Positions 4,276 through 11,660 of a DNA stretch of 64,000 nt are shown here, in pieces. The DNA comes from Methanocella sp. (GTDB taxonomy: Archaea > Thermoproteota > Bathyarchaeia > Bathyarchaeales > Bathycorpusculaceae). The notes beneath the pieces were generated by a model. That model did no database searches. It had not been told where the DNA came from and was given only the letters and a program-made list of their open reading frames with translations. A program made the position numbers and the translations under genes. The stretch covers positions 54,599-118,598 of the forward strand of contig JBLNCY010000006.1 in assembly GCA_050261115.1 (NCBI GenBank), read 5' to 3'. The stretch's first letter is position 1. Each line of letters starts with the position of its first letter.

Positions 4276-5898
4276 ATGAGTAGGCAAGAGAAACTCCAAA
4301 AAGCCATCGAGGCAGCCATCATTGCCGGCTACCAACTAAACAGCGAAGCTTTTGAGTTCCTTACCCAAAATGTGGACACAATGGACCCCGAAGCCGTAAT
4401 GAATCTAGCATTAATGCAGTTATCTGACTTAGAGGATAAGCCCATCTTCATCGACCGAGATAGACTCGTGTCAGTTATTCATCAATTAGCAGTTGCAGAA
4501 ATGCAACAAGCCTTAGAAAACCAAACCGAAACACAACCAACCAATGAACCCAATCCAGTTAACATATTCCCGGAAGCACAAAGCTACACCGAGCCAACCA
4601 TAAACGCGGTCGATGCCAGCGACTACTTTTACCCCTACGCCAAAGACATATCCTCCGAGCTTATAATCATAGAAGACCCCACAGGTAAACTCACCTCAAA
4701 CGGAACAATACAAGAATACACAGCGCTCTTCCAAGACCGCTTCAGACGGGTCGAAAAAATACTCCGCAACCGCATGGATGTCCGCTCAGCCACACCGCTA
4801 GCCGAAGCGGTCAAATCCCAACCGAAATCAAAACTCAAAGTCATCTGCATGCTAACAGAAAAACGCGACAGCAAAAACAACACCATCCTCTCAGTTGAAG
4901 ACCCAAACAGCAGCGCCACCATCGTCATCCCCCACAAGGCACCTGAAGAAGTAAAAAAGAAGGCACTAACACTATTGCCCGACACCGTCTTTTGTGCGGC
5001 AGTCATCAAAACCCGAACCAATCTGCTCATGGCAGAAGACATTATCCTCCCAGAAGTCGGCCGAAAAGCACCTAAACGGGCCCAAGAACCTGTCTATGCA
5101 GTGCTGACTTCAGATGTACATGTAGGTAGCAATAAATTTACCAAAGATGCATTTCGCCGTTTCATTCTTTGGCTAAGAGGTAAGTATGGCACCCCACAAA
5201 TGCGTGAAGTCGCAGGCCGCGTCAAGTACCTCTTAATCGCAGGTGACATCGTCGACGGCGTAGGTATTTATCCCGGTCAACAAACAGAACTCACCATACG
5301 TGATGTACGCAAGCAATACAACTTTGCCATCAAATATCTAGAAAAAATACCCAGCTACATAGAAATCGTGCTCTCACCAGGCAACCACGACGCCGCGCGT
5401 AAATCCCAACCTCAGCCAGCCATCCCAGAAGGATACCTAACCGCAATCAAAGATAAACCAAACATTCACTCTGTTGGCAGCCCCTGCTACCTAAGCATAC
5501 ATGGCGTTGAAGTCTTGATGTATCACGGTGTAAGCCTAAATGACATCATAGGGGTAGTGCCGGGGATGGATAATGATCATCCTGAGAAGTCCATGAGGCT
5601 ACTTATGCAGGATCGCCACTTGGCACCTATGTATGGCGGTAAAACCATGCTTTCGCCTGAGAACCGCGACTATATGGTTGTCGAGCGAGTCCCCGACATC
5701 TTTCATGCGGGTCACATTCACGTTTTAGGCTACTGTAACTATCGGGGGGTACTTGTAGTTAATTCGGGGGGCTGGCAACTGCAGACTGAGTATATGGAAA
5801 AGTTAGGGCTGATGCCTACGCCTGGGAAGGTTCCTGTAATCAACTTGCAAACAATGGAGATTACGGTTCTGGATTTCCTAAACCCCATTGAGAGTTAG
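4276..5898 (+). CDS. polD1: DNA polymerase D small (proofreading) subunit DP1
   Basis: OB fold plus calcineurin-like motifs SDVHVGS, GDIVDG, PGNHD, HLAP, GHIH. Confidence 0.95.
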   Translation: MSRQEKLQKAIEAAIIAGYQLNSEAFEFLTQNVDTMDPEAVMNLALMQLSDLEDKPIFIDRDRLVSVIHQLAVAEMQQALENQTETQPTNEPNPVNIFPEAQSYTEPTINAVDASDYFYPYAKDISSELIIIEDPTGKLTSNGTIQEYTALFQDRFRRVEKILRNRMDVRSATPLAEAVKSQPKSKLKVICMLTEKRDSKNNTILSVEDPNSSATIVIPHKAPEEVKKKALTLLPDTVFCAAVIKTRTNLLMAEDIILPEVGRKAPKRAQEPVYAVLTSDVHVGSNKFTKDAFRRFILWLRGKYGTPQMREVAGRVKYLLIAGDIVDGVGIYPGQQTELTIRDVRKQYNFAIKYLEKIPSYIEIVLSPGNHDAARKSQPQPAIPEGYLTAIKDKPNIHSVGSPCYLSIHGVEVLMYHGVSLNDIIGVVPGMDNDHPEKSMRLLMQDRHLAPMYGGKTMLSPENRDYMVVERVPDIFHAGHIHVLGYCNYRGVLVVNSGGWQLQTEYMEKLGLMPTPGKVPVINLQTMEITVLDFLNPIES

Positions 5899-7118
5899 GT
5901 TTTGTGGAGGCTTTTTGGCTGATAATTTAGCAGAGGGCCAAAACGTGCGTCTGTACCAAATACATCTTTTATTAAGCCACGGCTAATTTCAAGACGAATC
6001 TTCTTAGTTCGCCCATACCGGCCCATGCTAACAACTTTGGCGTTGACAAGCCCCATAGAATCAAGCTCGTTTACAAGCGTTCCGAGGCGTCGCTGGGTAA
6101 GTAATCCTGCGCCCATTTCGCCACAGAGTTCATTGTATATGTCATAGATTTCTCCTGTGGATGCACTGTGCTTGTTGAGGTGATATACGCTTAGCAGGAC
6201 AAGTTTTGAGTGCAACGTCAAGTTTTTTAGAGCTTCGATTACACGGTTGTGTTCTATGTGTTTTTCAGCTTGGCGAACGTGTTCTTCTGTGATGGTGGTT
6301 GCACCGTTCCGTTCGGCTACTTCACCGGCTACTCTGAGCAGGTCTAGAGCTCTTCTGGCATCGCCATGCTCTGCTGCGGCCAAGGCTGCGGATATGCTAA
6401 GTGCAGACTCAGTCAAAGCACCATCCATAAATGCAAGCTTTGATCGTTCAAACAAAATATTTCGGAGTTCGCTTGCATCGTAGGGTCGGAATACGAGTTC
6501 TTCTTCACTTAAGGAGCTGAATACACGGGGGTCTAGGAATTCTTTTAGGCGGAGGTCGTTTGATATGCCGATGATTGAGACTTTGCTTTTGTTGAGTGTT
6601 TCGTTGATGCGGGTGAGTTCGTACATGAAGGCGTCGCCTCGGTCTTTTATGAGGGCATCTACCTCGTCTAGTACGATGATGAATATAATGTAAGATTGGT
6701 CTAGGCCTGAGCGGAATCTATCGAAAACTTCGCCGACTGACAACCCAGTAAAGGGAATGGATAGCCCAACACTTTGGCTAAGGGCGGCAAAAACGCGGTA
6801 TTCTGAACCGGTCATGCGGCAGTTTATGTAACAGAATTTTATTTGGGCCCCATACTCTTTGGCTTTTGATTCGAGGTGGCTAAGGACGTATTTGGCTACT
6901 GCGGTTTTTCCTGTGCCGGTTTTGCCGTAGATGAATATGTTTGAGCAGCGGGCATTTCTTAGTACAGGGGCTACTGTGGATCCTAGGAGTCGGATTTGTT
7001 CTTCTCGGTGGGGGAGCTTTTCTGGTAGATAGTCATGTCTTAGGACTTCGCGGTCTTTGAAGAGTCTTGGGCCTTTTACGAAATTGTCAAACACATCATC
7101 AAGTACAGAGTTTCCCAT
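5895..7118 (-). CDS. cdc6: Orc1/Cdc6 replication initiator
   Basis: LPHREEQI, Walker A GKTGTGKT, Walker B LDEVD, GDARRALDLL, C-terminal wHTH GRYGRTK. Confidence 0.97.
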   Translation of the reverse strand: MGNSVLDDVFDNFVKGPRLFKDREVLRHDYLPEKLPHREEQIRLLGSTVAPVLRNARCSNIFIYGKTGTGKTAVAKYVLSHLESKAKEYGAQIKFCYINCRMTGSEYRVFAALSQSVGLSIPFTGLSVGEVFDRFRSGLDQSYIIFIIVLDEVDALIKDRGDAFMYELTRINETLNKSKVSIIGISNDLRLKEFLDPRVFSSLSEEELVFRPYDASELRNILFERSKLAFMDGALTESALSISAALAAAEHGDARRALDLLRVAGEVAERNGATTITEEHVRQAEKHIEHNRVIEALKNLTLHSKLVLLSVYHLNKHSASTGEIYDIYNELCGEMGAGLLTQRRLGTLVNELDSMGLVNAKVVSMGRYGRTKKIRLEISRGLIKDVFGTDARFGPLLNYQPKSLHKT

Positions 7119-7149
7119 TGTTTGCCCACCCTATTTTTTTTCAGAGGTA

Positions 7150-7170
7150 CAACCGTTATTTCGAGTGGAA
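7150..7170 (-). promoter_or_regulatory. ORB-like box 1
   Basis: Minus strand TTCCACTCGAAATAACGGTTG resembles ORB TTCCAGTGGAAA-n-GGGG. Confidence 0.65.
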
Positions 7171-7269
7171 CAGATAAAGGCTACAGTACAAAAAAATGGT
7201 TTTGAACAACAACATTCCTAAAAGAAGACAAAAACAGGCAGAAACAACCTATCAACCCAAGGATAGACT

Positions 7270-7291
7270 CACCCGTTGATTTCTACTGGAA
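7270..7291 (-). promoter_or_regulatory. ORB-like box 2
   Basis: Minus strand TTCCAGTAGAAATCAACGGGTG. Confidence 0.75.
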
Positions 7292-7455
7292 AAATCAACT
7301 AACTTTACACTAACCCATATTATAGTATAACATAATAATATACTCTGAGTTGTAAATTAGCTTTGAATATATTAATGATTGTTGTCCAAAAAAATAGATA
7401 GACTCTCAGAAATTATTTTTCGACCGCTTCTCAACTTCTTTTTTCCCCTAAAACT

Positions 7456-7477
7456 CTCGAGAGGAAAAAGAGGGGTG
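7456..7477 (+). promoter_or_regulatory. ORB-like box 3
   Basis: CTCGAGAGGAAAAAGAGGGGTG with G-string. Confidence 0.7.
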
Positions 7478-7612
7478 CCTCTCTGATCTGAATTCCATGG
7501 AAGAAAGCTTGTAAGCTGTCCCTTTGCTTCAATATTTTGCCATGGCTTGCTTTGCTCCTTACCAAAGTTCGCCTAGTGACCTCTTGATTGCCAGGTTTGG
7601 GTGGCTTAGGGG

Positions 7613-7913
7613 TTCACAAAACTGTGAATACATGTGAAATAGCAATAAATCTGTAGCTTTATCAAGCTTCTTTTTCGGAGATTTACTTGTTTTCTGTCTG
7701 TTAACAGTGAATGTGGCACCCCTTGGCTTCTACTGGAGAACTCGATTTAAGCTGGAAAGATAAATCTTTTAACCGTTTGTTTTTCTGTGAAGCTTGTAAT
7801 TCTAAAAACAATTATAAAATAAGTTATTTACTGAAAATAAGCTTGAATTGGGCTTTTTATTTTGGCTGTTTTCACCATCACAGTTATATGCTGTGAAGCT
7901 GTAGAGTTGTGAA
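7613..7913. repeat. GTGAA/TTCAC motif cluster upstream of the 143-aa wHTH gene
   Basis: Copies at 7613, 7624, 7634, 7707, 7787, 7871, 7893, 7909. Confidence 0.75.
7717..7738 (-). promoter_or_regulatory. ORB-like box 4
   Basis: Minus strand CTCCAGTAGAAGCCAAGGGGTG with G-string, inverted relative to box 3. Confidence 0.75.
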
Positions 7914-7932
7914 CAACCTAGGTGTCTAATTA

Positions 7933-8364
7933 GTGCCGACTCGCAAAATGCGCGTGGAGCTCTTTGACAATGAGGGCAATCGGTATACCATTGCCTTTGA
8001 GGGTCAAGTGACCCGCGACAAAGCTCTACGCCTGCTTGATCTTGTTGAATTGCTAGGCGGCACACCGAATGAAACATCAAATATAACAAGTCCAGCAGTA
8101 CCCAGTCCTCGTCAACTGTCTCGTTTTGAGAAGGTTCAAGCAGTAATTCAGAAGAATTTCCCCTTAATCTGGTTCTCATCCAAAGACATTCAGGCAGTCT
8201 ATGAGCAGGAATTCAAAGAACCTGTCAGCCTAAGCACCATATCCACCTACCTCTCCAGAATGGCCTCAAAAGGCATGCTTATGCGCACTGGCACCTCCAA
8301 CAACCTCAAGTACAAGACTGCCCCAAACATTCCAGCGACAATCAAGCAGCGTATAATAAAGTAG
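7933..8364 (+). CDS. Uncharacterised origin-adjacent protein with C-terminal winged helix
   Basis: Small N-terminal beta-hairpin/helix domain, P/S/T linker, wHTH FSSKDIQAVYEQ...LSTISTYLSRMASKGMLMRTG. Confidence 0.8.
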   Translation: MPTRKMRVELFDNEGNRYTIAFEGQVTRDKALRLLDLVELLGGTPNETSNITSPAVPSPRQLSRFEKVQAVIQKNFPLIWFSSKDIQAVYEQEFKEPVSLSTISTYLSRMASKGMLMRTGTSNNLKYKTAPNIPATIKQRIIK

Positions 8365-8365
8365 C

Positions 8366-8411
8366 TTCACAAGCCCTTCACAACAGTTCACCACTGTTCA
8401 CAGGGTTCACA
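8366..8411. repeat. Five phased TTCAC direct repeats
   Basis: TTCAC at 8366, 8377, 8387, 8397, 8406 (spacing 11, 10, 10, 9). Confidence 0.9.
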
Positions 8412-8484
8412 ACATGCTTGTATTAGGTTGACGATTATTGGTAGCTGCCCATATTTTTTAGCATGCTATTTAGTTGAGTTGAGT

Positions 8485-8532
8485 TGCGTCTCTTGCTTTG
8501 CCAAGAGACCCCTCCTTATATATATAGAGTCA
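8485..8532 (+). repeat. Dispersed intergenic repeat, copy 1
   Basis: tgcgtctcttgctttgccaagagacccctccttatatatatagagtca; matches copies at 40610, 45314 and 62633. Confidence 0.8.
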
Positions 8533-8645
8533 ACCTCGGGTTGAACCTGGTCTTGAAAGCATACCTGCAAAAATACTAGCCTCACGGAACCCTTTAGTAG
8601 TAAAGCCCAGGAGACTGTCTATTTTGCAGTGGAAAATAAATTCGG

Positions 8646-9527
8646 CTAGGTTACGGCTGGCGAAGGCTCTGTCTTCTGCAGCAGGGCCTCCATCTCCTTT
8701 TTAATTGTATATCGGAACGGAATCTTACCAGCCTCCCTCTCCACATAACCTTCCTCATAAATCCTTTTCATCAACCTAGCCGTATGCTCCCTGCTCAAGC
8801 CAAGACGCTCTTTAATTTCCGGTGCAGTCTTAGCGCCCTCCTTAGAGAGCATCTCCAGCACTGCAATCTCTGTCTCGGTCAACGCTGCAAGAGCCTTGTC
8901 ACGTTTGATAGGAACAACCGGAAGCGCCATTTCACTTCGAGCCTCTATTGGAGCCGGCGGGGCAGTAGCTAACTTTTGGAGTTGTTCTTCCAACATAGCA
9001 ATTTTTTGTTGCATGGCTTGCTGGGCATTTTGTGCCTCTTGGAGTTTTGCTTGGAGGGTTGCCATTTCGTTTGTGAGCTCTGATTTTAGGGTTGTATTGT
9101 TTTGTGTGATTTCTGCCAAGTTTGCTGTGACGTCCTGGGTTAGAGTTTGATGTATTTGGTTAAGGGCGATGATCTGGGTTTCCAAGGGGTCGATTAGGTT
9201 CTCTAGCCGTTCGGCCTTTCGGTAGCTGGCTTCTGCGGTGGAGTAGCTGCCCTCAACTCTTGTCACCATATTATCAAATTTTTCTGATTGACGTTTTAAT
9301 TCACGGTTAAAACTAAGCACTATATCGCCCAAGAAATCTTTGGCTTTAGCGTATTCTTGTAGGCTCTGTTCATATTGTAGATGAGTTTTTGCGTATTCCT
9401 GCTGGGTTAGCTCATATACTCGGTGAACTTTGCGGATTTGACGGTAGTATTCATATCCTGCTATTGCTGTGACAGCTAATAGCACGCCAAAGATTACTAC
9501 TGTTAGGTCAACCGTGATGCTCTCCAC
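8646..9527 (-). CDS. Membrane-anchored coiled-coil protein with C-terminal MarR-like winged helix
   Basis: N-terminal hydrophobic helix LTVVIFGVLLAVTAIAGY, ~160 aa Q/E/L/K-rich heptads, APPAP linker, wHTH LTETEIAVLEML...TAPEIKERLGLSREHTARLMKRIYEEGYVER. Confidence 0.85.
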   Translation of the reverse strand: MESITVDLTVVIFGVLLAVTAIAGYEYYRQIRKVHRVYELTQQEYAKTHLQYEQSLQEYAKAKDFLGDIVLSFNRELKRQSEKFDNMVTRVEGSYSTAEASYRKAERLENLIDPLETQIIALNQIHQTLTQDVTANLAEITQNNTTLKSELTNEMATLQAKLQEAQNAQQAMQQKIAMLEEQLQKLATAPPAPIEARSEMALPVVPIKRDKALAALTETEIAVLEMLSKEGAKTAPEIKERLGLSREHTARLMKRIYEEGYVEREAGKIPFRYTIKKEMEALLQKTEPSPAVT

Positions 9528-9867
9528 CTGTGATTTTTTCGTGATTCAACCGTGATTGTCACGTGATTATGATGATTTGTGATGATTACATGTGACATTA
9601 ACAGTTGCGTCACATATCACAAGTATCTCCATGGAAATTTAAGCCTATCGGTGACATTTTTCCATGAATTCATGACGTCACACATCACGGAAAACCGAAT
9701 TAATGCTTCTGTGATATCTATCCTTGGTTAAAGAGGCTTAATTTAAGCTTATTTTGTCGAAATAACTGTTATATTGGAGCTTGTGTGATGTGTGATAAAC
9801 TACCCCAAAATAGTGCAAAAATAATGGAAAAATTCGTGATTTGTGACGTCACAAAGGCTCTTGTGAT
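9514..9867. repeat. Dense GTGAY/RTCAC motif array
   Basis: 20 copies counted in ~355 bp; 11-bp phased run at 9530/9541/9552/9563; 12-mer GTGATNTGTGAY at 9609(-), 9677(-), 9785, 9836; palindrome TTTGTGACGTCACAAA at 9840-9855. Confidence 0.9.
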
Positions 9868-10346
9868 GGGCTAGAAAGCCGTTTTAGGCTTGTTTCGAGC
9901 TCATTTCTGATGATTTCTATGACTTTTGCATGGTCTTTTAGTTCCTCTTCCTTGCTGGGTAGGTTAGAGTGTGCGTCGACATAATCGTGCAGTTTATTGG
10001 CTATTTCTAAGTACGGGTCAAGAGTTGTGGTCTCAAAAACGCCCAAATAACCTAAAAGAAGTACTGTGTAAATGGATTTTATGACGTTTTCTCTGGACTG
10101 TTTTAAAGTCCTATTAAACGAACCGCGGCTTATTTTAGCCCTTGTTAGGCGTAAGGCTGCTTTTTCATCGTATTTTAGCTCTTTGCCTGCTATATTTTCC
10201 GATAAAATGTCAATGAGTAGCGTTTCGAGCTGTGTTTTTGTTAATTGGCTGTTTTTAGCCAGTATTTGTACAATAGGGTCTTTTAATGCTCCGTTTAACC
10301 ATGCTGTAACGCCGTCTTTTAGCTTCAAATCTCGTGATTCCTCCAT
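9849..10346 (-). CDS. Uncharacterised HTH-containing protein
   Basis: LTKTQLETLL...ISRGSFNRTLKQSRENV resembles a sigma-4/Bat-type HTH, followed by helical C-terminus. Confidence 0.7.
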   Translation of the reverse strand: MEESRDLKLKDGVTAWLNGALKDPIVQILAKNSQLTKTQLETLLIDILSENIAGKELKYDEKAALRLTRAKISRGSFNRTLKQSRENVIKSIYTVLLLGYLGVFETTTLDPYLEIANKLHDYVDAHSNLPSKEEELKDHAKVIEIIRNELETSLKRLSSPSQEPL

Positions 10347-10718
10347 ACCTTAAATGGATACAGTTTTGTATACCCACTCGGGTTTTTATCCTTTCGAAGC
10401 CCTCCTGACCCCAAAAACCGCTTGTTAAAGCAGATAAATTAGCCGTAAAAATGCAAATAACGCCTAAAAATTGAATTATTATTAAAAACAACGCTAAATT
10501 GGTACAGTTAACATAATAACGACTAAATCCTCGGTAATTTTATCGCTAAAAATGCCTGAACTTTACACAAAAAATGCACTTTTGCAAACGCCCACAACCC
10601 GCTAACCTCACCAGTTTTAACATACTCAGCACAATTAAACACACTTTTCAACCCCTAATCTAGCACCAAAACACATTTTTAGAAACCCAGCTCACAGTTC
10701 ACAATCCCGAAAAACCAC

Positions 10719-10791
10719 GTGATATCACCAAAAAATGCGTGATTTTAGCCTTAAACCACTTGATATCACAGCGTTGTGATGCACCTGTGAT
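10719..10791. repeat. Second GTGAT/ATCAC cluster
   Basis: Six copies (10719, 10724-, 10739, 10765-, 10776, 10787) including palindrome GTGATATCAC. Confidence 0.8.
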
Positions 10792-10826
10792 GCCCAAATA
10801 CCCATGGAGAACTTGTGGCATTCACT

Positions 10827-11660
10827 CTAAATCTGCTCAGACAACCGCCTTAGCTGGTCATAAAGCTCTGGGCGAAGGTCCCGTAAGGTCGGAATAAAGG
10901 TCTCAGCAGTACGCAAATCGCCAAAATCAACCTCACAAAACACAAAATCCTCCTCATCATACCTTGCCCTAGCTAAAACGTCCCCTGTTGGGCTCACAAC
11001 GCGGCTTCCACCCCAAAACTGCAAGCCATCCTCAACGCCTGCAAGGTTAACGTAGGCTAAATAGCAAGTGTTTTCCAAGGCCCGTGCCGCGGTAAGAACC
11101 TCAAAGTAGCTTCTGCGTACCGCTGGCGAAGCAGAAATGCAAATTATGAGTTGAGCCCCCTTCAGTCGGGATAGCCGAAAGACTTCGGGGAAGAAAACAT
11201 CATAGCAGATGGTTAGGCCGATGTTGCCGAGTTCAGTTTGGAAGGCGGCTGGTTCATATCCGGGCCGAAAATAGCGTTTCTCCTCAAACACGCTATGCGT
11301 TGGAAGATACATCTTGCGGTACTTGCCAATAAAGCCGTTTGGTCCCACTAGGACGGCGGTATTATAGATTGTCGCTTGGGTCTTCTCGCTTAGCTCTGGT
11401 AACCCAAAGACGATGTGTATGCCTGTTTTCTTAGCTATCTCTTCAACTTTCGCTGTGCTAGGTCCGGGGACTGGTTCGGCTAGCGTGTACACTTGGTCTC
11501 GCAGTACATAGCCGGTAAGGCACATTTCAGGGAAAACAGCCAAGTCCACGCCCTCGGCTTTTGCCCTCTGGGTTAATTCTTCGATTTTTGCTAGGTTTGC
11601 GTTTTTGTTTTCTCGTTGGGGTGCGATTTGGCAGAGGGCAAGCTTGATTCTGGCTTTCAT
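10827..11660 (-). CDS. Carbon-nitrogen hydrolase (nitrilase family)
   Basis: E-K-C triad in FPE, YRK and ICYD; probable start MKARIKLAL at 11660. Confidence 0.9.
   Translation of the reverse strand: MKARIKLALCQIAPQRENKNANLAKIEELTQRAKAEGVDLAVFPEMCLTGYVLRDQVYTLAEPVPGPSTAKVEEIAKKTGIHIVFGLPELSEKTQATIYNTAVLVGPNGFIGKYRKMYLPTHSVFEEKRYFRPGYEPAAFQTELGNIGLTICYDVFFPEVFRLSRLKGAQLIICISASPAVRRSYFEVLTAARALENTCYLAYVNLAGVEDGLQFWGGSRVVSPTGDVLARARYDEEDFVFCEVDFGDLRTAETFIPTLRDLRPELYDQLRRLSEQI

Follow-up and report, generated by a model that had tools for sequence, protein, structure and literature searches.

The membrane-anchored winged-helix protein and its setting

We analysed a 64,000-nucleotide stretch of archaeal DNA (hereafter the window; contig JBLNCY010000006.1 of assembly GCA_050261115.1, class Bathyarchaeia, phylum Thermoproteota), which comes from a 2.15-Mb genome in 66 contigs, 95% complete. 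The subject is a minus-strand gene at 8646..9527 (hereafter the target gene), whose predicted product joins a transmembrane (TM) helix, a long coiled coil and a winged helix-turn-helix (wHTH), and which lies between two other conserved genes beside a putative replication origin. The genes and protein parts are as follows.

8646..9527, minus strand: target gene, TM, coiled-coil and wHTH protein, 293 aa when read from the GTG at 9527
9447..9506, minus strand: N-terminal TM helix, residues ~8–27, N-terminus out and C-terminus in, from hydropathy, flanking charge and model
8967..9446, minus strand: heptad-repeat stalk, residues 28–187, including a conserved juxtamembrane block at 58–91
8904..8966, minus strand: proline-rich disordered linker, residues 188–208
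8676..8903, minus strand: MarR/TrmB-like wHTH, residues 209–284, from Pfam, AlphaFold2 and Foldseek; almost invariant across the class
9849..10346, minus strand: hyp165, a conserved all-helical partner gene with no Pfam family
7933..8364, plus strand: wHTH143, a small conserved protein with a C-terminal wHTH-like part, facing the origin and converging on the target gene
7119..7932, unstranded: putative oriC spacer, AT-rich (GC content 0.38), with repeats like origin recognition boxes (ORBs) and A-type boxes
5895..7118, minus strand: orc1/cdc6 initiator gene (Pfam Cdc6_lid and Cdc6_C, 84 bits each)

Homologous loci comprised a close set of 80, from species-level genomes, and a distant set of 40, fetched from other families, orders and classes; counts over 120 loci combine the two sets, and counts over 81 loci combine the close set with the window. 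The results indicate that the target protein has one N-terminal TM helix: a 19-residue window with a mean Kyte-Doolittle value of at least 1.6 is present in 117 of the 120 loci, and in the AlphaFold2 model (50-row alignment; mean predicted local distance difference test score, pLDDT, 88.5) it lies inside one continuous helix, residues 3–187, at pLDDT >95. Across the homologous loci the mean net charge is +1.9 in the 12 residues after the TM window vs. −0.13 before it; by the positive-inside rule, this asymmetry places the C-terminus, with the DNA-binding end, in the cytoplasm, and the wHTH is thus predicted not to be extracellular. Only 0–10 residues precede the TM helix in most loci, 3–7 are extracellular in the window protein, and there is no sensor domain. 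Over residues 28–187 the strongest hydrophobicity period in the family alignment is 3.5 residues (power 45 vs. a mean of 6), which is the mark of a coiled coil and agrees with the single helix of the model; the predicted stalk of ~160 residues would, if straight, be ~24 nm long (160 residues at ~0.15 nm). A homodimer prediction scored 0.23 (mark 0.42), a value that counts neither for nor against pairing. Residues 189–208, at pLDDT <50, form the linker.

Residues 209–284 of the model form a compact helix-helix-helix-wing-helix domain. This domain exceeds the Pfam cut-offs for both MarR (PF01047; 31.5 bits vs. 24.6, residues 216–266) and TrmB (PF01978; 30.6 bits vs. 25.6, residues 216–275), and its top Foldseek matches in the PDB are MarR-family chains, with a root-mean-square deviation (rmsd) of ~2 Å over ~77 residues and E ~3e-4; chains solved on DNA are among the best fold matches. 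Superpositions with rmsd ≤4 Å cover 74–90 alignment columns of 104–161-residue chains, and longer alignments in the Foldseek list have rmsd >11 Å. The invariant basic or polar residues R246, H248, R251, K254 and R264 fall in the recognition helix and wing. Among NCBIfam models, Lrs14 (NF040939; 24.6 bits vs. a cut-off of 90) and Sta1 (NF053606; 24.5 vs. 80) stay far below threshold, and the wHTH alone, searched against PDB sequences, retrieves only designed repeat proteins, weak MarR matches, Lrp and Z-alpha, with no TrmB chain. The family profile, searched against the same sequences, gives one weak MarR match besides coiled coils; a kinship with chemoreceptors, tropomyosin or myosin was rejected, the high compositional bias marking those matches as composition, as was a hairpin stalk, in place of which the model has one straight helix. 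We conclude that the first-pass annotation, which had read a single TM helix, a cytoplasmic C-terminus, ~160 residues of coiled coil, a proline linker, a MarR-like wHTH and hardly any extracellular sensor from the letters alone, described the protein correctly in each of these parts.

A word-indexed search returned 3088 related proteins at E ≤1e-3; the best 120 of these share 53–99% identity with the target and are named, if at all, 'MarR family transcriptional regulator' or with coiled-coil misnomers. An exhaustive library search matched 564 representatives at E ≤1e-3, 211 at 1e-10 and 22 at 1e-30. Distant representatives, at 25–50% identity, keep the TM helix, the juxtamembrane block, the stalk and a near-invariant recognition helix and wing, and ten distant clusters, from Thermoproteota or Bathyarchaeota, are labelled 'MarR family', 'predicted transcriptional regulator' or 'hypothetical'. 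The target profile matches 199 of 401 sampled genomes of the phylum at E ≤1e-5, and 51 of 59 of the class; no further copy was found elsewhere in the window genome. A full-text literature search, with most subscription journals outside its coverage, returned no paper that describes the family or links it to oriC. No such factor appears in the accessible parts of a 2014 review of archaeal origins, from which the word 'membrane' is absent, and of a 2016 review of segregation (PMC5120986), where that word occurs solely in background on other subjects.

Linkage to oriC and cdc6 across classes

The putative origin spacer carries ORB-like repeats with a G-string at 7270–7296 and 7717–7743 (direct) and at 7455–7479 (inverted), around an AT-rich stretch, and directly adjoins orc1/cdc6. 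The earlier placement of the target gene about 1 kb from oriC agrees with the measured distances, 0.7–0.9 kb from its 3' end and 1.6–1.8 kb from its 5' end. In the close loci the order is GGGP synthase, Zn-ribbon, nadE, nitrilase, hyp165, target, wHTH143, spacer, cdc6, with a median distance of 1324 bp from the 3' end of the target gene to cdc6. The first-pass annotation had named as counting against its own view a scatter of homologues far from origins in the manner of ordinary regulators, and no such scatter is seen: cdc6 and oriC lie beside them in 73 of the 80 close loci, all seven misses being loci cut by contig ends, and cdc6 is within the stretch in 32 of the 40 distant loci. Of the other eight distant loci, two run out at the final base of a genome that consists of one contig, three are the matches with no TM helix, and three truly have no cdc6. 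Most close loci come from kin, and their synteny counts are therefore not independent and say little alone; for this reason we examined the distant loci, and the weight of the synteny argument rests on the cross-class cases.

Some of these cases come from four genomes (G189, G012, G353 and G377) that carry archaeal amoA and are therefore ammonia oxidisers. Their homologue is ~200 aa long and has the TM helix, coiled coil and wHTH, and their gene order is GGGP synthase, an open reading frame (ORF) of 120–130 aa, target, a wHTH143 homologue, an ORB-bearing spacer and cdc6. By hhalign (96%, E 4e-9), the 120–130-aa ORF and hyp165 are homologous. The nadE, nitrilase and Zn-ribbon genes are not kept in the ammonia oxidisers; only the core stays together. 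Within the class, one other family (L127, L129, L133) has ORBs that start a few bases past the target stop codon, and in another family, of the same taxonomic order, an insertion between target and wHTH143 brings in a HerA-domain gene (central domain) together with a 333-aa ORF that has no family. The window genome has two Cdc6_C genes, the second (63.6 bits) on contig C47 at ~25.3 kb, and only one of the two has the hyp165-target-wHTH143 cluster beside it.

Several details of these loci are recorded here in their own right. In L127, L129 and L133 the place of wHTH143 is taken by another HTH-like ORF, of 122 aa and encoded on the opposite strand. The HerA-type insertion spans L120:7099–9631 and consists of the 333-aa ORF and a 519-aa ORF with the HerA central domain (32.3 bits; cut-off 23.2); insertions of 2.5–3.5 kb between wHTH143 and target are also present in L118, L121–L123, L125, L126, L058, L061 and L063. 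The spacer between wHTH143 and cdc6 in the ammonia-oxidiser loci L147, L148 and L142 has clear ORB pairs with a G-string and ~10 copies of GTTAAC each, and GTTAAC may be the counterpart of the A-type boxes in that group. Four motif matches lie ~8 kb from the second Cdc6_C gene on contig C47. L151–L153, which are weak wHTH-only matches with no TM helix and no cdc6 nearby, were rejected as orthologues, taken as unrelated wHTH proteins and excluded from the counts of T-type and A-type boxes.

Two box types around the target gene

Two short motifs recur at the locus and are told apart by their fifth base: T-type boxes are GTGAT/ATCAC and A-type boxes are GTGAA/TTCAC. We define a double box as GTGAY-N-TGTGAY. 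The relevant features are as follows.

9528..9848, unstranded: T-box region between hyp165 and target, the densest motif cluster of the genome
9530–9582: phased AATCAC units in the T-box region
9609–9620 and 9677–9688, minus strand: double boxes in the T-box region
9633–9643: TATA-like element in the T-box region
9785–9796 and 9836–9847, plus strand: double boxes in the T-box region
10692..10790, unstranded: second T-box cluster, 350–450 bp upstream of hyp165
8366..8410, plus strand: array of five TTCAC(A/C) boxes at 10–11 bp spacing, just past the wHTH143 stop

GTGA-type six-mers are enriched 14–17-fold in the three spacers around the target gene, and the three densest motif clusters of the 2.15-Mb genome all lie here: first 9513–9862, with 13 matches per 400 bp vs. 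a mean of 0.4, then 7613–7908, then 10698–10786. Four of the six double boxes in the genome are in the 320-bp spacer upstream of the target gene, the other two being inside ORFs, and triple TCAC at 10–11-bp spacing occurs at only two sites in the genome, one on each side of the target gene. The remaining motif clusters and double boxes (contigs C22, C38 and C46) lie inside ORFs and were taken as chance. Read toward the target gene, the spacer presents an inverted double box by the hyp165 stop, a double box, the TATA-like element, a second double box, AATCAC units at 11 bp, a stretch like a Shine-Dalgarno (SD) sequence and, within the last unit, the start codon.

This layout is general. Within 350 nt upstream of the target gene, at least one same-strand double box is present in all 80 close loci and at least two in 77 of 80, and an inverted double box is present in 79 of 80, and the 1.22 Mb of loci contain only one double box elsewhere. 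The last 100 nt have 0–6 units (median 3) vs. a background of 0.19. Of the 22 double boxes counted in five other genomes, 17 are placed immediately upstream of the target gene, and a reversed-pattern control gives 0–2 matches per strand. Ammonia-oxidiser promoters have the same box plan in a shorter form, and the family of L127, L129 and L133 has perfect GTGAT|ATCAC palindromes in place of double boxes.

The two box types are separate in position. The spacer upstream of the target gene has a median of 8 T-type and 0 A-type boxes (79 loci; 286 bp), and the 550 nt upstream of hyp165 have a median of 7 T-type and 1 A-type (78 loci), the T-type median there being 0 with a 250-nt window and the cluster sitting 350–450 nt upstream; the 250 nt before wHTH143 have a median of 0 T-type and 5 A-type (74 loci). 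T-boxes thus lie on the promoter and leader of the target gene and around hyp165, 1.6–3.6 kb from the ORBs and not in the origin spacer, and the boxes nearest to the cdc6 start, from ~490 bp away, are A-type. Where an insertion splits wHTH143 from the target gene (L006, L032), the A-box array stays by the 3' end of wHTH143. A reading of the leader as RNA structure found no support: RNAalifold on 17 sequences gave 12 pairs, 0 compensatory changes and −7.4 kcal/mol, in a test that the invariant columns of the leader limit and that cannot exclude an RNA reading of the repeats. Rfam has no match in 7000–11000.

Boxes in relatives without the target gene

Eight of the 59 sampled genomes of the class have no match to the target profile, and six of these eight keep hyp165; in three of the six, hyp165 and wHTH143 are immediate neighbours, which leaves no space for the target gene. 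In those three the A-boxes before wHTH143 persist, at 5–7 per 250 nt. Double T-boxes, counted in five of the six hyp165-keeping genomes (all but G246), number 0, 0, 0, 1 and 1; G378 and G360 have the one match each, in both cases within an ORF on another contig, and these were taken as chance. Since these relatives are without T-boxes, the T-boxes go with the target gene and not with hyp165 or wHTH143, and since the A-boxes are kept where the target gene is lost, the A-boxes go with wHTH143. We infer that the target protein reads the T-boxes, the co-loss, seen in few lineages, being the main argument. What is new in these results is the set of nearly private T-boxes ahead of the gene, their absence after loss of the gene, and a separate A-box that tracks wHTH143.

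Likeness to known systems

RocS of Streptococcus pneumoniae, RicO of Staphylococcus aureus and RacA of Bacillus subtilis anchor origins to the membrane or pole and, as far as the accessible part of the source describes them, carry a MerR-type HTH at the N-terminus, followed by a coiled coil and, at the C-terminus, an amphipathic helix or a partner; the amphipathic helix of RocS is replaceable by unrelated transmembrane domains (10.64898/2026.03.06.710092). Within the same partial description, the likeness to the target protein lies in a small HTH, a coiled coil (self-associating in the bacterial proteins) and a membrane element, and in position: the bacterial proteins act on origin-proximal DNA, and the candidate T-box sites lie 1.6–3.6 kb from the ORBs. 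The differences are that the order is reversed, with a C-terminal MarR/TrmB-like HTH in place of an N-terminal MerR-type one, and that the target has an integral N-terminal TM helix where RocS and RicO use a peripheral amphipathic helix and RacA uses DivIVA. The bacterial proteins are from Firmicutes and the target is archaeal, and a sequence relation is neither seen nor expected. The resemblance to RocS in reverse order, proposed earlier, thus holds as an analogy only.

A second likeness is to the TrmB family, for which the accessible part of one report describes an N-terminal wHTH, one coiled-coil helix and a C-terminal sugar-binding effector domain, and binding of TrmBL1 and Tgr to TATCAC-N5-GTGATA, before the B recognition element (BRE)/TATA or at +1, with autoregulation (PMC4158304). 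The target locus shares the half-site ATCAC/GTGAT and the placement of boxes before TATA or at +1, the coiled coil, which serves dimerisation in TrmB proteins, may do so in the target protein, and the autoregulation reported for TrmB proteins (PMC4158304) is likely for the target protein as well. On the same partial account, TrmB proteins are soluble, with wHTH at the N-terminus and an effector domain, whereas the target protein is membrane-bound, with a C-terminal wHTH, a 160-residue stalk and no effector domain; and the Thermococcales glycolytic motif is one palindrome, whereas the boxes of the target locus are mostly tandem or phased. Canonical MarR proteins are chains of ~140 residues in which the N- and C-terminal helices form the dimer and the ligand pocket; the target is without these helices, and its 76-residue wHTH, placed after a disordered linker, matches about half of a MarR chain.

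Plasmid centromeres of the ParR/parC type double as promoters, with phased short repeats that flank the core promoter in varying unit number, and are bound by ParR, a ribbon-helix-helix protein. The target locus is alike in having phased repeats, variable in unit number, at the core promoter of the gene for the presumed binder, and unlike in the fold of that binder, in having no ParM or ParA motor partner in the cluster, and in being chromosomal and archaeal. Membrane-anchored regulators of the ToxR/CadC and ArnR types have a cytoplasmic N-terminal HTH and extracytoplasmic or HAMP-like sensor parts. The target protein likewise has a cytoplasmic HTH on a membrane-anchored chain, but has no sensor, and its HTH is C-terminal.

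Candidate functions of the target protein

Because the boxes overlap the promoter, gene regulation would be at least part of the job of the target protein, and because that protein cannot leave the membrane, binding would also fix DNA there. We tentatively propose, at somewhat short of even chances, that the target protein binds DNA while fixed in the membrane, regulates its own gene and pins DNA close to the origin, as an analogue and not a homologue of RocS, RicO and RacA. According to this proposal, the 160-residue heptad helix must pair with other copies of the target protein, the paired winged helices would read the T-boxes, and binding would repress the target promoter and probably that of hyp165; the same binding would hold the stretch 1.6–3.6 kb from the ORBs at the membrane through the ~24-nm stalk, and the phased units, of varying number, would build a multi-copy nucleoprotein patch, as plasmid centromeres with a second role as promoters do. 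This anchor function is favoured by the units themselves (how many there are, how they are phased and how their count varies), by the further cluster past hyp165, by the absence of a sensor and by the deep linkage to oriC.

Several results weigh against it. The oriC spacer itself has a median of 1 T-type box, with 10 A-type (71 loci), and the boxes overlap the core promoter, as a plain autorepressor needs. The assignment of the T-boxes to one of three neighbours with HTH parts rests on co-occurrence in few lineages, and in the genomes lacking the target gene the boxes could have been deleted together with its promoter. The target protein also appears dispensable in some lineages, since 8 of 59 genomes have no match.

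A purely local, membrane-bound repressor of the target gene and hyp165 that reads the T-boxes is favoured instead by the overlap of boxes and promoter, by an oriC devoid of T-boxes and by those lineages that have lost the gene; to this alternative we assign a real, minority probability, perhaps near one third. In such a protein the anchor would limit reach or couple the repressor to a membrane signal or to cleavage, and closeness to the origin would reflect gene dosage or cell-cycle timing, with no mechanical role. The promoter architecture fits, with double boxes flanking the TATA-like element and phased units running from the likely transcript start to the start codon, as do the rare ATC start codon (see below), which suits tight control of expression, the fact that both matched Pfam families are regulator families, and the source name 'MarR family transcriptional regulator' given to homologues. 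TrmB-family regulators, too, bind before BRE/TATA or at +1 and autoregulate, in the accessible part of the report cited above (PMC4158304). Local repression alone accounts poorly for other features: one or two operators would suffice for it, whereas the median is 8 T-type cores in 286 bp; it does not call for a second cluster beyond hyp165 or for units whose number ranges from 0 to 6; the protein has no sensor domain and almost no extracellular residues; a 160-residue stalk, conserved in its length class, is costly; and the arrangement with oriC and cdc6 persists across classes that do not share the other neighbours. Positional and promoter-occupying effects of the same binding are inseparable by sequence.

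Much less probable is a factor for replication control that would delay or license initiation, in the manner of origin sequestration, by holding DNA at the membrane or together with wHTH143 and Orc1/Cdc6. The deep linkage to oriC and cdc6 would be expected of it, as would ORBs directly after the target stop in one family, an origin spacer filled with the A-boxes of wHTH143, and the presence of the cluster beside only one of two Cdc6_C genes; but T-boxes are absent from the origin spacer and from the surroundings of the cdc6 start, and several lineages keep oriC and cdc6 without the target gene. Winged helices can also bind proteins, and we consider it highly improbable that the target is a membrane scaffold (for example, for division or envelope proteins) with the boxes belonging to another factor, for although the juxtamembrane block at 58–91 looks like an interaction surface and the HTH-like part of hyp165 could read the boxes, the invariant wHTH residues are basic or polar and lie in the recognition helix and wing, the best fold matches include MarR chains on DNA, and the T-boxes vanish with the target gene and not with hyp165.

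To return to the proposed anchor, a further-reaching form, in which it would be a centromere-like origin anchor that predates the split between Bathyarchaeia and ammonia oxidisers and may work with wHTH143, reading the A-boxes of oriC, and with hyp165, we regard as rather unlikely. Should it hold, lineages for which no chromosome-positioning system is known would have a first candidate. The 2016 review, in its accessible part, describes SegAB in Crenarchaea and Euryarchaea only (PMC5120986). The target would thus be a candidate for the placement or separation of archaeal chromosomes outside the Sulfolobus SegAB group, one that offers a protein built to join DNA to membrane, an exact candidate site, and homologues in cultivable ammonia oxidisers. 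More broadly, a three-gene set of predicted DNA-binding proteins with at least two box types, kept with oriC and cdc6 across classes, could bear on origin control.

Start codon, neighbouring genes and RNA-library contigs

Comparison of the loci suggests that the true start of the target gene is probably the ATC at 9518–9516, three codons inside the GTG at 9527. This codon, at the position of a conserved 'ITVD', is ATC in 50 and ATT in 2 of the 81 loci, each time preceded by a purine-rich SD-like stretch, and in 50 loci with ATC or ATT no ATG, GTG or TTG occurs within the six preceding codons; most of the remaining 29 loci carry a canonical start (ATG, GTG or TTG) there or right beside it. Upstream starts could be scored in 73 of the 80 close loci (the other 7 gave no anchor match), and in 45 of these no ATG, GTG or TTG lies far enough upstream to cover the hydrophobic segment, which stays hydrophobic while its residues vary. 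The GTG at 9527 falls within the SD-like stretch, and the TM helix is retained under either start; with the ATC start the extracellular tail is only 3–4 residues, and the candidate start is embedded in the last ATCAC box of the array. Because the probable start is non-canonical, gene callers often truncate the TM helix in database entries.

The partner gene hyp165 is conserved from Bathyarchaeia to ammonia oxidisers and is bracketed by T-box clusters. Residues 33–97 of its model (predicted template modelling score 0.70) superpose on sigma-70 region 4 and LuxR-type HTH domains at a middling Z of 6–7.3, with the archaeal transcription factor 8hno among the superpositions; a Foldseek search with the model returned nothing at E ≤0.001. 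Protein atlas clusters for hyp165 and wHTH143 bear only the name 'hypothetical protein'. From its position and the boxes that accompany it, wHTH143, which belongs to no named family, may be an origin-binding accessory factor.

Four metatranscriptome runs, which belong to three studies, have RNA-library contigs that match the target gene and wHTH143 with 0–1 differences; such contigs carry no information on strand or level. Three of them, drawn from three studies, terminate at 9580–9582, within the unit array and 53–64 nt ahead of the start codon, and weakly suggest a transcript 5' end there. Positions 7322–7876 and 9653–9874 are uncovered in all four runs, which we do not count as a finding.

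Among minor observations, L076 is a 4.1-kb contig that carries this archaeal locus and is filed under a Bacteroidetes metagenome-assembled genome, which looks like a binning error. The RNA-library contigs differ from the window by C>A at 8399, in the A-box array (two runs), and by C>T at 9520, just ahead of the ATC start (three runs); both differences are most simply strain variation.

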